This document shows positions 11,418 to 63,211 of a stretch of 64,000 nucleotides of DNA, in pieces. The stretch is from Escherichia phage a51. Position 1 is the stretch's first letter. The number at the start of each line of letters is the position of its first letter. Position numbers and translations under genes: made by a program. Under the pieces are notes generated by a model. The model was not told the DNA's origin, searched no databases, and saw only the letters and a list, made by a program, of their open reading frames with translations. The stretch lies in sequence record OQ067376.1; one strand, 5' to 3'.

Positions 11418-11444
11418 AATAAAATGGGCCTTGCGGCCCACTCC

Positions 11445-18081: not shown

Positions 18082-18127
18082 TTTTGATTTTCCTCATTTT
18101 GATAGGGGCTTGACAGCCCCTTGATAA

Positions 18128-37659: not shown

Positions 37660-37740
37660 TCACTGGCGTCCGAAGACGCCTTTAGTTTTAAGATTGTTAC
37701 GATAGAACTGCATTACGTGTTCGTTATGGAAATTACTCAT
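37660..37740 (-). CDS. stp: Stp peptide (activator of host anticodon nuclease)
   Basis: Own translation [26 protein letters not shown] (26 aa); start overlaps ndd stop. Confidence 0.7.
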
Positions 37741-55822: not shown

Positions 55823-55847
55823 AAAAAAGGACTCCCGAAGGAGTCCT
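55823..55847 (-). terminator. rho-independent terminator downstream of soc (identical hairpin to 2842-2861)
   Basis: aggactcccgaaggagtcct with T-run on minus strand. Confidence 0.6.
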
Positions 55848-55852
55848 TGAAT

Positions 55853-56098
55853 TTATTCACCAGTTACTTTCCACAAATCTTCGTTTGCAGTAATCCATTC
55901 AGTACGTTGATTTTCTTCATATACTGTAGAATATGCTGCTTTTTCTGAAGGGAATATCTGATAATGAGCGCCAGAAATTTTGTGAACGTCAGAATAAAGA
56001 GGGAAAGCTACAGAAATTTCCTTTCCTTCAATTTTCTTATTTCCATCTAATTTTTGCTCAAATGTTTTAATATTAACATAACCGCGAGTACTAGCCAT
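55853..56098 (-). CDS. soc: Soc small outer capsid protein
   Basis: 81 aa, recognised as T4 Soc. Confidence 0.9.
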   Translation of the reverse strand: MASTRGYVNIKTFEQKLDGNKKIEGKEISVAFPLYSDVHKISGAHYQIFPSEKAAYSTVYEENQRTEWITANEDLWKVTGE

Positions 56099-56113
56099 GT
56101 AATTCTCCTTTAT

Positions 56114-56323
56114 TTAAATTACATGACTATTTATAATAAATTCTTGCGGAACGTTAAAATACCCAATTTTAGTTAATATAACAACATCACCGTTAATAAT
56201 TACCGGAGAATAATCGGCTGGAGCATTAAACTTCCAATGAGCTCTAATATTATATCCATCAGAACCAAATGCTCAACTAGCCGGTCTCCCGGCTTTTTGC
56301 CATGCATAAAAATCAAATTTCAT
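56114..56323 (-). pseudogene. small ORF interrupted by an in-frame TGA (16 codons, TGA, then 52 open codons)
   Basis: Own translation MKFDFYAWQKAGRPAS-TGA-AFGSDGYNIRAHWKFNAPADYSPVIINGDVVILTKIGYFNVPQEFIINSHVI; ATGA start overlap; contains the soc late promoter in its 3' end. Confidence 0.3.
56128..56135 (-). promoter_or_regulatory. late promoter TATAAATA for soc
   Basis: plus strand tatttata = TATAAATA on minus, about 30 nt upstream of soc ATG. Confidence 0.65.
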
Positions 56324-56520
56324 TTTGAATGCTCTATAATTAATTTTAAGGCTTCTTCATGCACCTTACCTAATTGTATATGTCCAGTTTTAATTGTGTA
56401 AGCTTTGTGGAGCTGATTAGATAGGAGCTCGTATGTGAGCTCCTTGTCATAATTTTTAAATAGCTGGTCAATACGTTTCTTGTGGGCTTTCTTAAGTTGA
56501 CGTTTATTTAAACGAGCCAT
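56320..56520 (-). CDS. hypothetical protein (66 aa)
   Basis: ORF track. Confidence 0.5.
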   Translation of the reverse strand: MARLNKRQLKKAHKKRIDQLFKNYDKELTYELLSNQLHKAYTIKTGHIQLGKVHEEALKLIIEHSK

Positions 56521-57038
56521 TAATAACCTCGGTCTTGACGAGCGAAGTTTTCAGCATTTTTCAGATAATAAAGTTTAAAGATTTCTTCAGCCGTAAGACC
56601 GAGACCTTGGAACATGTTCAGAACGAAATGAAGAATATCAATCATTTCGAATTTAATTTCCAACTGGTCTTGTGGAGACAAATCAGTAATCAGAGTTTCA
56701 CGTCGTTCACCATGTTGAGCTTTCCAAGGCTTCCATACAGCAGATGCATCTTTTTCACCATTGCTCATACCACCAAGAGAAGTCAATAGTTCGCGGAATT
56801 CATCATCAATATAATCTTTCTGATTACGCAGCCAATCAACAACTTCACCCGCAGTAGCCAAATCATCAGGATGACGGTTATATTCAGGTTTATCTTTAGC
56901 TAAACGAACCTGTAGAGATTTCTGCATATCAAGCATAACCTGCAGCGGGTCTTTTTCATCACCGAGAATATCCCAGTATTCATTTTGAGCTTTATCAGCG
57001 CCTTCGATCAGTTGACTACATTCGTTAAAGTAAGCCAT
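56520..57038 (-). CDS. 56: dCTP pyrophosphatase
   Basis: From ATG at 57038 (MAYFNEC...), about 172 aa, matches T4 gp56. Confidence 0.85.
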   Translation of the reverse strand: MAYFNECSQLIEGADKAQNEYWDILGDEKDPLQVMLDMQKSLQVRLAKDKPEYNRHPDDLATAGEVVDWLRNQKDYIDDEFRELLTSLGGMSNGEKDASAVWKPWKAQHGERRETLITDLSPQDQLEIKFEMIDILHFVLNMFQGLGLTAEEIFKLYYLKNAENFARQDRGY

Positions 57039-57098
57039 TATTTTTCCTTTCAATTCATTAATAAGTTAAATAATTATATCATTTGAGTATGTAAGCAA

Positions 57099-58438
<1,340 letters not shown>

Positions 58439-62848: not shown

Positions 62849-63211
62849 TTAAAAGAATTTAAACTTTTTCTTTGACCTTTTATTAAATGCATCTTGTAGT
62901 TGCATTGTAATACATTTTTCTACATGAGGAGCTAACTCAGCTTTTCTTTCTTGGTCAAGAACAGCAAAGTCCATTACGACTTTTCCATCAACCCAATCTA
63001 ATTTTGTCACATACACAATGTGTGTAGAACCATCTTCTAGTTTAATGACAATCTCCTGGATAACATTTTCCATGGCAGATTTAATTATCTTAAGAGATTC
63101 ATTAAAAAGACGTTCTTTTCTTTCTTCTTCCCCCTCCGAAGAGGGGGATTCATCGATAATTTCTAGATCTAAATCTAAATCATCTTTATTCATTAAATTC
63201 TTCCATATCAC
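62849..63211 (-). CDS. 40: gp40 head vertex assembly chaperone
   Basis: 120 aa ORF between 41 and uvsX. Confidence 0.75.
   Translation of the reverse strand: MIWKNLMNKDDLDLDLEIIDESPSSEGEEERKERLFNESLKIIKSAMENVIQEIVIKLEDGSTHIVYVTKLDWVDGKVVMDFAVLDQERKAELAPHVEKCITMQLQDAFNKRSKKKFKFF

Follow-up and report, generated by a model that had tools for sequence, protein, structure and literature searches.

Between gene 56 and soc of Escherichia phage a51 (sequence record OQ067376.1), a small open reading frame ends at a TGA after only 16 codons, and the same frame then stays open for 52 further codons, almost up to the start of soc. A perfect GC-rich hairpin lies just ahead of the TGA. The question raised by this locus is whether the stop codon is a plain nonsense mutation, the end of a leader peptide that acts together with the hairpin, or a stop which is meant to be read through. 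The first-pass annotation had placed these three interpretations side by side. In the analysis reported here, which covered a stretch of 64,000 nucleotides (the window, to which all positions refer), the nonsense mutation is retained, and the leader peptide and programmed readthrough are set aside. The feature is best explained as a natural opal nonsense allele of the accessory gene soc.1, an ordinary polymorphism, and the probability of this reading is put at about 85 %.

The interrupted gene

The genes concerned lie on the minus strand in the order dam (57099-57878), gene 56, a soc.2-like ORF, the interval under study (56114-56323), and soc. Gene 56 (56520-57053), which codes for the dCTPase, forms the upstream boundary of the variable 56-soc interval. 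The soc.2-like ORF (56320-56520) is intact, has 66 codons, matches phrog_5782 with an E value of 3.9e-37, and bears the name soc.2 in relatives. It is translationally coupled to gene 56 on its upstream side and to soc.1 on its downstream side, where its TGA stop overlaps the ATG of soc.1 (56321-56323) as ATGA. The soc gene for the small outer capsid protein (55853-56098) is intact as well (Pfam PF16855 Soc, 180 bits) and is followed by an intrinsic terminator that is bidirectional (55827-55848, both strands).

On the minus strand, the interval reads ATG AAA TTT ... GCT AGT TGA, followed by 52 sense codons and TAA; its translation is MKFDFYAWQKAGRPAS*AFGSDGYNIRAHWKFNAPADYSPVIINGDVVILTKIGYFNVPQEFIINSHVI*. 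The truncated frame (56273-56323) consists of the ATG, 15 sense codons and the opal stop, which is codon 17 (56273-56275; the mutated base is 56275). The orphaned 3′ part occupies 56114-56272, and its TAA (56114-56116), just ahead of the soc ribosome-binding site, is separated by 15 nt from the ATG of soc (56096-56098). The hairpin AGCCGG-GAGA-CCGGCT (56279-56294) is formed by codons 10-15, which encode K-A-G-R-P-A, and the single codon AGT, 3 nt, stands between it and the TGA. The first-pass annotation was correct, on this strand, in all that it read directly from the letters: the coupled 16-codon ORF, the frame that remains open for 52 codons up to the soc ribosome-binding site, and, apart from the intervening AGT, the perfect hairpin immediately before the stop.

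Profile matches, database names and one paper identify the interrupted ORF as soc.1 (Pfam PF24197, DUF7422; phrog_5773), an accessory gene that replaces segF in T2-like phages. When Arg17 is restored, the ORF aligns with profile positions 1-69 of the 69 in DUF7422 at 155.9 bits, and it also matches phrog_5773. The unrepaired 52-codon fragment alone covers positions 18-69 at 108.5 bits (E 1.8e-31), the Pfam gathering score for membership being 27 bits; the earlier remark that the downstream frame is protein-like is borne out by this match. Every soc.1 homologue examined is located between the dCTPase gene and soc, and the copy in the window occupies the same position on the same strand. The uninterrupted frame of about 67-74 codons is broken in the window by the TGA at codon 17, and judged by its sequence, this copy is a nonsense allele (pseudogene) of the soc.1 family and not an intact member. 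The homing endonuclease gene segF lies between 56 and soc in T4, as had been stated, and soc.1 is absent there. According to PMC5931544, which cites Belle et al. (2002) on this point, soc.1 and soc.2 stand in for segF in T2-type phages.

Intact soc.1 alleles show dN/dS values of 0.12-0.22 (codons 18-61, eight pairwise comparisons). These values indicate that they evolve as a real protein, with the C-terminal 52 residues under purifying selection. The AlphaFold model of Soc.1 is poor (pLDDT 62.6, pTM 0.42), no solved structure matched it in sequence, and the literature search found no functional account of soc.1 or DUF7422. Scans of IMG/VR and of metagenomes added only 7 and 3 further loci, respectively. 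Some family members depart from the usual length. Two DUF7422 variants of 121 residues occur, in Cronobacter phage Pet-CM3-4 (L014 401-766) and at a second locus (L033 401-766; P0007); one continues beyond its soc.1-like part at the C-terminus, and the other is longer at the N-terminus by 54 residues, beginning at the end of gene 56. In Escherichia phage ERS-1 (an UNVERIFIED record; L017 401-605), soc.1 differs from that of all relatives by numerous indels, and these look like uncorrected long-read sequencing error rather than biology.

Origin, spread and presumed tolerance of the TGA allele

Alignments with near-identical relatives show that the TGA differs from CGA (Arg17) by a single C-to-T transition. 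Phages EPIMAM01, PP01, and A6-6 have an uninterrupted 210-nt CDS annotated at the same place, with an intact 69-residue protein, and the C/T at codon 17 is the sole difference between them and the window within this ORF. T2 and Shfl2 also have CGA at codon 17 of an uninterrupted 69-codon soc.1. It is on these relatives that the proposal of a nonsense-mutated gene stands.

A megablast search with 801 nt around the interval returned 555 records of T-even-type phages, 173 of which align over 80 % or more of the query and 8 of which are 100 % identical to it. The alleles were counted with a 55-mer centred on the variable base; as megablast needs an exact 28-mer, only records that match at this base are reported. 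The TGA was found in 22 records (three phages being counted twice, as GenBank and RefSeq copies) and the CGA in 148, so that the TGA accounts for about 13 % of close relatives. The TGA records comprise ES19/ES21, ZN18, YUEEL01/TOPO13, seven vB_EcoM-CHD/G3 phages, ECO07P4/P5, phage 107, DCP2, and the HP3 group, which are isolates of several countries, continents and hosts. Sequencing error is ruled out as the source of the TGA, since the identical base is present in 22 records from several laboratories.

The three TGA backgrounds examined in a 680-nt alignment, namely, the window, HP3, and TOPO13, share a C at the upstream marker column 107, which is missing from the CGA alleles of that alignment. 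Given this linked marker, the TGA allele most likely had one origin and was then carried by recombination to other backgrounds. Upstream and at the TGA itself, TOPO13 follows the window, and it carries the Shfl2 haplotype from within 58 nt downstream of the stop; HP3 agrees with EPIMAM01 at the two markers that lie farthest upstream. The allele has persisted through at least two recombination events. In none of the TGA lineages examined were TGA-specific changes found downstream of the stop. Frame decay was considered for TOPO13 and rejected, because its three non-synonymous differences are residues of the intact Shfl2 allele and represent inherited polymorphism. The lack of further decay indicates that the TGA allele is young. 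It is too young for the intact downstream frame to say anything on continued use, and relaxed selection cannot be demonstrated with no extra substitutions to draw on. The persistence of the allele is compatible with neutrality and hitch-hiking, with weak positive selection, or with sufficient low-level readthrough.

A simple course of events can be proposed for the nonsense allele. Once Arg17 had been changed from CGA to TGA by the one transition, ribosomes coupled from soc.2 via the ATGA would make the 16-residue peptide and terminate. The remaining 52 codons would then be translated only through the ordinary low UGA leak of the host, with Trp inserted. The allele would be tolerated for two reasons, namely, that soc.1 is dispensable and that soc has late expression signals of its own, so that a stop at codon 17 would be harmless to it. 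The dispensability of soc.1 is suggested by the ability of the isolates with the TGA to form plaques on E. coli, E. fergusonii, and Yersinia, by the lack of soc.1 in T4, and by the existence of disrupted soc.1 alleles other than the TGA. The 16-residue product keeps the most conserved segment of the family; a complete loss of Soc.1 function in the TGA phages is assumed here. Taken in this sense, lytic phages can do without soc.1 and still function, the therapeutic candidate HP3 among them, and the locus offers a compact example of one nonsense allele moved between T-even backgrounds by short-patch recombination.

The broken gene is treated in different ways in sequence records. In phage 107, a spurious 38-residue “putative transmembrane protein” in an alternative frame has been placed over it (L001 585-701, equivalent to 56200-56316 of the window, minus strand), and in TOPO13 a spurious hypothetical protein of 35 residues in an alternative frame (L006 696-803). 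In the remaining style of annotation of the TGA allele, the soc.1 interval is left empty by gene callers. Other records label soc.1 or soc.2 as head, virion structural or small outer capsid protein, and such labels appear to stem from the gene name or from the map position next to soc. The original UniRef entry Q94MW2 (P0011; the 40-residue “ORF soc.1” of T2) and the entries P0006, P0009, and P0010 are frameshifted into the same alternative frame (..IGSLMLQPIILR). Current T2 genomes have an intact 69-codon soc.1 (L007 680-889). The frameshifted entries represent either further natural disruptions or sequencing errors. The main value of the present analysis lies in the correction of annotation, both for the broken soc.1 and for labels based on position.

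The soc.1 hairpin and the soc expression cassette

The hairpin of codons 10-15 is found in every intact soc.1 allele, which indicates that it predates the TGA and is unrelated to the stop. Its pattern has one occurrence in the window and none in 100 shuffles. The local 36-nt fold has a z score of -3.0 in the window, and wherever a lineage has retained the stem the score lies between -2.5 and -4.2; Moonvirus homologues, with Asp at residue 11, have no stem and a z score of +1.3. Four of the six stem pairs are dictated by the peptide Ala-Gly ... Pro-Ala (GCN GGN ... CCN GCN), and the two free pairs use third codon positions, those of Lys10/Ala15 and Ala11/Pro14. The free pairs were compared in a set of 15 different sequences, drawn from metagenomic contigs as well as from Tequatro-, Mosig-, and Karamvirus-like phages. 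Pair 1 (Lys10/Ala15) is A-U in 9 of them, G-C in 5, and mismatched in 1; pair 4 (Ala11/Pro14) is C-G in 8, U-A in 6, and U.G in 1. Four backgrounds show U-A at pair 4, one of them that of a close Tequatrovirus relative (L026), and both free pairs are switched together in one sequence (L030). The observed covariation score was reached by none of 500 shuffles of a 12-sequence alignment, which is a small sample of related sequences. These compensatory changes at both free pairs constitute moderate evidence for a conserved stem. The stem is also built from codons that are rare in this genome, whose G+C content is 35.5 %: GCC has a share of 7 % among the codons for Ala, GGG of 5 % among those for Gly, and CCG of 15 % among those for Pro. 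Rare codons and compensatory changes across genera together suggest that the hairpin is probably a functional RNA, a candidate cis-acting element kept across Tequatro-, Mosig-, and Karamvirus-like phages. As a candidate cis-regulatory RNA in the 56-soc interval, this covarying hairpin within a coding region is the only item of possible wider interest at the locus.

The limits of the element and its possible nature were considered in several respects. When single sequences are folded, a lower helix forms in which the C of CGA is paired to a G of the Trp8 codon, and the C-to-U change turns this G-C pair into G.U, shifting the energy from -16.8 to -14.1 kcal/mol; the lower helix was rejected as a part of the conserved element, since RNAalifold retains only the 6-bp stem across all lineages. 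A RegB site in the GGGAGA loop is unlikely, as the GGA is partly paired, its 3′ context is unlike GGAGRAYARAA (PMC3014915), and Karamvirus-type loops are without GGAG yet keep the stem. The hairpin of the window does not have the form of an intrinsic terminator either: the stem is followed by AGUUGAGC, with no U-tract, and the terminator scan gives no call.

A U-tract is present only in HP3 (CCGGCUUUUUGA). In this phage (L005 704-730, equivalent to 56274-56300 of the window), an AG-to-TT double change has turned the AGT beside the TGA into TTT, and the stem has become AAAAAGCCGG-GAGA-CCGGCTTTTT, an 11-bp perfect palindrome with a U5 tail and an energy of -18.4 kcal/mol. The palindrome looks like a bidirectional intrinsic terminator, and the tandem change toward perfect complementarity suggests a templated quasi-palindrome correction. 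Perfect GC-rich 6-bp hairpins with 3-5-nt loops are abundant as a class, with 10 in the window against about 0.2 expected from a first-order Markov model (about 40-fold); examples are found at 1966-1981, 11425-11440, 18105-18120, 37665-37680, and 63131-63146. Roughly half of the ten are followed on one strand by a T-rich tail and probably act as terminators.

A second structure lies at the other end of soc.1. The start codon of soc is buried in a 14-bp hairpin (56092-56129, minus strand), whose 5′ arm (56116-56129) falls in the last soc.1 codons and whose 3′ arm (56092-56105) holds the AUG; its energy is -19.4 kcal/mol with a z score of -3.74, which no shuffle out of 200 attained. The T4-type late promoter box TATAAATA (56128-56135), within soc.1 codons 63-66, is presumably the late promoter of soc, its function being taken over from what is known of T4. 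As far as the letters go, the window holds the cassette of late promoter and start hairpin, with the box so placed that late transcripts would begin within the 5′ arm. The late promoter and translation-start hairpin of T4 soc were described by Macdonald, Kutter and Mosig (1984), as cited in PMC2988022 and PMC3014915, and the translation start of T4 soc is sequestered in early polycistronic transcripts (PMC2988022; PMC3014915). Because both elements sit in the last soc.1 codons and are shared with T4, soc expression would be independent of soc.1 translation.

The two structures can be linked in a more ambitious account, in which the soc.1 hairpin is a cis-acting RNA element and the opal allele is kept because it tightens the late-only expression of soc. 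Ribosomes that finish an intact soc.1 traverse the 5′ arm of the soc hairpin and could couple soc to early transcripts. The stop at codon 17 would keep ribosomes off this arm, and the TGA allele would thereby remove the coupling. The soc.1 hairpin might serve as a barrier to decay or processing, or as a weak attenuator analogous to the T4 56/segF terminator, and the AG-to-TT change of HP3, with its U5 palindrome, would be a second step in the same direction. This combination is regarded as unlikely.

Readthrough, other readings and known systems

Very unlikely is a functional form of low-level readthrough, in which the host tRNA-Trp decodes the UGA and yields a small, selected amount of Soc.1 R17W, so that the stop tunes dosage and is not a null. 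In an E. coli K-12 reporter, basal UGA readthrough amounts to about 2 % at 37°C and about 4 % at 25°C (PMC10570021), the downstream frame is intact in all 22 carriers, and the family tolerates R, K, and P at position 17, all of which favour such a role. However, the intact frame is uninformative, since the allele has no changes anywhere, and the stop is derived, confined to a minority and unconserved. Tequatrovirus homologues have R at residue 17, those of Mosigvirus have K, and Karamvirus-like ones have P, the codon in other genera is AAA or CCN, and a stop at this position is absent from every other homologue lineage examined. The conservation expected of programmed readthrough is therefore lacking. 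Nor does the sequence after the stop offer a stimulatory structure, as the fold 3′ of the TGA contains only a weak 4-bp stem. Rfam gave no relevant match, and its sole hit was a sub-threshold chance match to the soc hairpin.

Ribosome footprints imply that a ribosome at a stop codon has already melted structure lying upstream. The soc.1 hairpin, being 5′ of the TGA, would be unwound by the ribosome at the TGA and so should be unable to work like the 3′ stimulators of readthrough. No suppressor was found among the tRNAs that were inspected. There are no tRNA genes in the window, and phage 107, which has the identical allele and matches the window without a difference across the 801-nt query, has 11 tRNAs, and UCA is not among their anticodons. 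The tRNA-Arg of T4 can mutate to an opal suppressor, and that of phage 107 has the ordinary anticodon UCU, for which reason a phage-encoded opal suppressor was discarded. Hence, only the ordinary basal UGA leak is to be expected at the soc.1 TGA.

Other ways around the stop fail on direct grounds. Reassignment of TGA is ruled out, as TGA ends 23 of the 70 long ORFs in the window, and so is reinitiation, as no in-frame ATG, GTG or TTG occurs downstream of the TGA. Selenocysteine insertion was dismissed because there is no SECIS hairpin 3′ of the UGA, either as a fold or as an Rfam match, and because the UGA is a recent derivative of CGA. The suggestion of stop-codon readthrough as a programmed mechanism is thus not sustained, with a stop that is not conserved, no suppressor tRNA, and a hairpin upstream of the stop. 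The comparison of the 56-soc interval across T-even phages, which had been proposed as a check, speaks against recoding in general: the homologues have an uninterrupted ORF, and the TGA of the window is itself real.

The three remaining readings are all highly improbable. In the first, the 16-codon ORF and the hairpin form a leader peptide and attenuator that jointly regulate soc transcription or translation. The covarying, conserved hairpin, the intrinsic terminator that T4 has at the equivalent place, within the 5′ coding region of segF (PMC2988022), and the U5 tail gained by the hairpin of HP3 lend it some colour. Yet only the minority TGA allele contains the short ORF, whereas all alleles contain the hairpin; the window has neither the U-tract nor the alternative pairings of an attenuator, and the terminator scan makes no call there; and soc is under its own late promoter and start-codon hairpin. 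The leader peptide with a regulatory hairpin, as it had been put forward, is for these reasons not supported.

The second holds that the C-to-T change was selected for turning TCGAGC into the -35-like TTGAGC, which would create a new early promoter inside soc.1. The predicted sigma-70-like site (56276-56249, on the gene strand, minus) matches the consensus in 10 of 12 positions in a consensus scan, the mutation supplies the second T of the -35 hexamer, and the hexamer sits 16 nt upstream of a perfect TATAAT. Such sites are, however, frequent in AT-rich DNA (11 found against 6.3 +/- 2.8 in shuffles), and the transcript would still hold the soc-AUG hairpin and end at the soc terminator, with no plausible benefit visible. 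The third, in which the 16-residue peptide is itself the active product, a functional micro-peptide variant with an invariant N-terminal motif (FDFYAWQKAGRPA), can point to residues D4-A15, which are invariant in the family alignment and are the only part (residues 4-15) that aligns with the Moonvirus homologues, but it is opposed by the purifying selection on the C-terminal 52 residues in intact lineages (dN/dS 0.12-0.22) and by the confounding of N-terminal conservation with the RNA hairpin and translation-initiation signals.

Programmed UGA readthrough, such as that producing the Q-beta A1 protein, and selenocysteine recoding likewise present an in-frame UGA followed by an open, protein-like frame. 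Unlike in these systems, the stop of the window is recent, in the minority and unconserved, and the only structure lies 5′ of it.

By analogy, the closest counterpart of the soc.1 hairpin is the terminator within the 5′ coding region of T4 segF. The T4 56/segF terminator, GACGCC-GAAA-GGCGTC, and the soc.1 hairpin both have a 6-bp GC-rich stem with a GNRA tetraloop, and each falls among the first ~20 codons of the gene ahead of soc. The T4 terminator has a UUUU tail, whereas the hairpin of the window runs into AGUUGAGC, and the two sequences are not homologous. The soc cassettes resemble each other closely: that of T4 reads TATAAATA and then ..TCATGTAATTTAAATAAAGGAGAATTACATGGCTAG, nearly the same as in the window, with one A/G difference. 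They differ in what overlaps them, as the cassette of the window is overlapped by the last eight soc.1 codons, while in T4 segF ends inside the TATAAATA box.

The nearest known system is the soc.1 of T2-type phages. The order gene 56 - soc.2 - soc.1 - soc and the ATGA coupling are as in the window, and the intact genes of EPIMAM01 and PP01 share 68 of 69 codons with it. The difference is confined to codon 17, which is CGA in T2-type soc.1 and TGA in the window, where it splits the frame into 16 + 52 codons.
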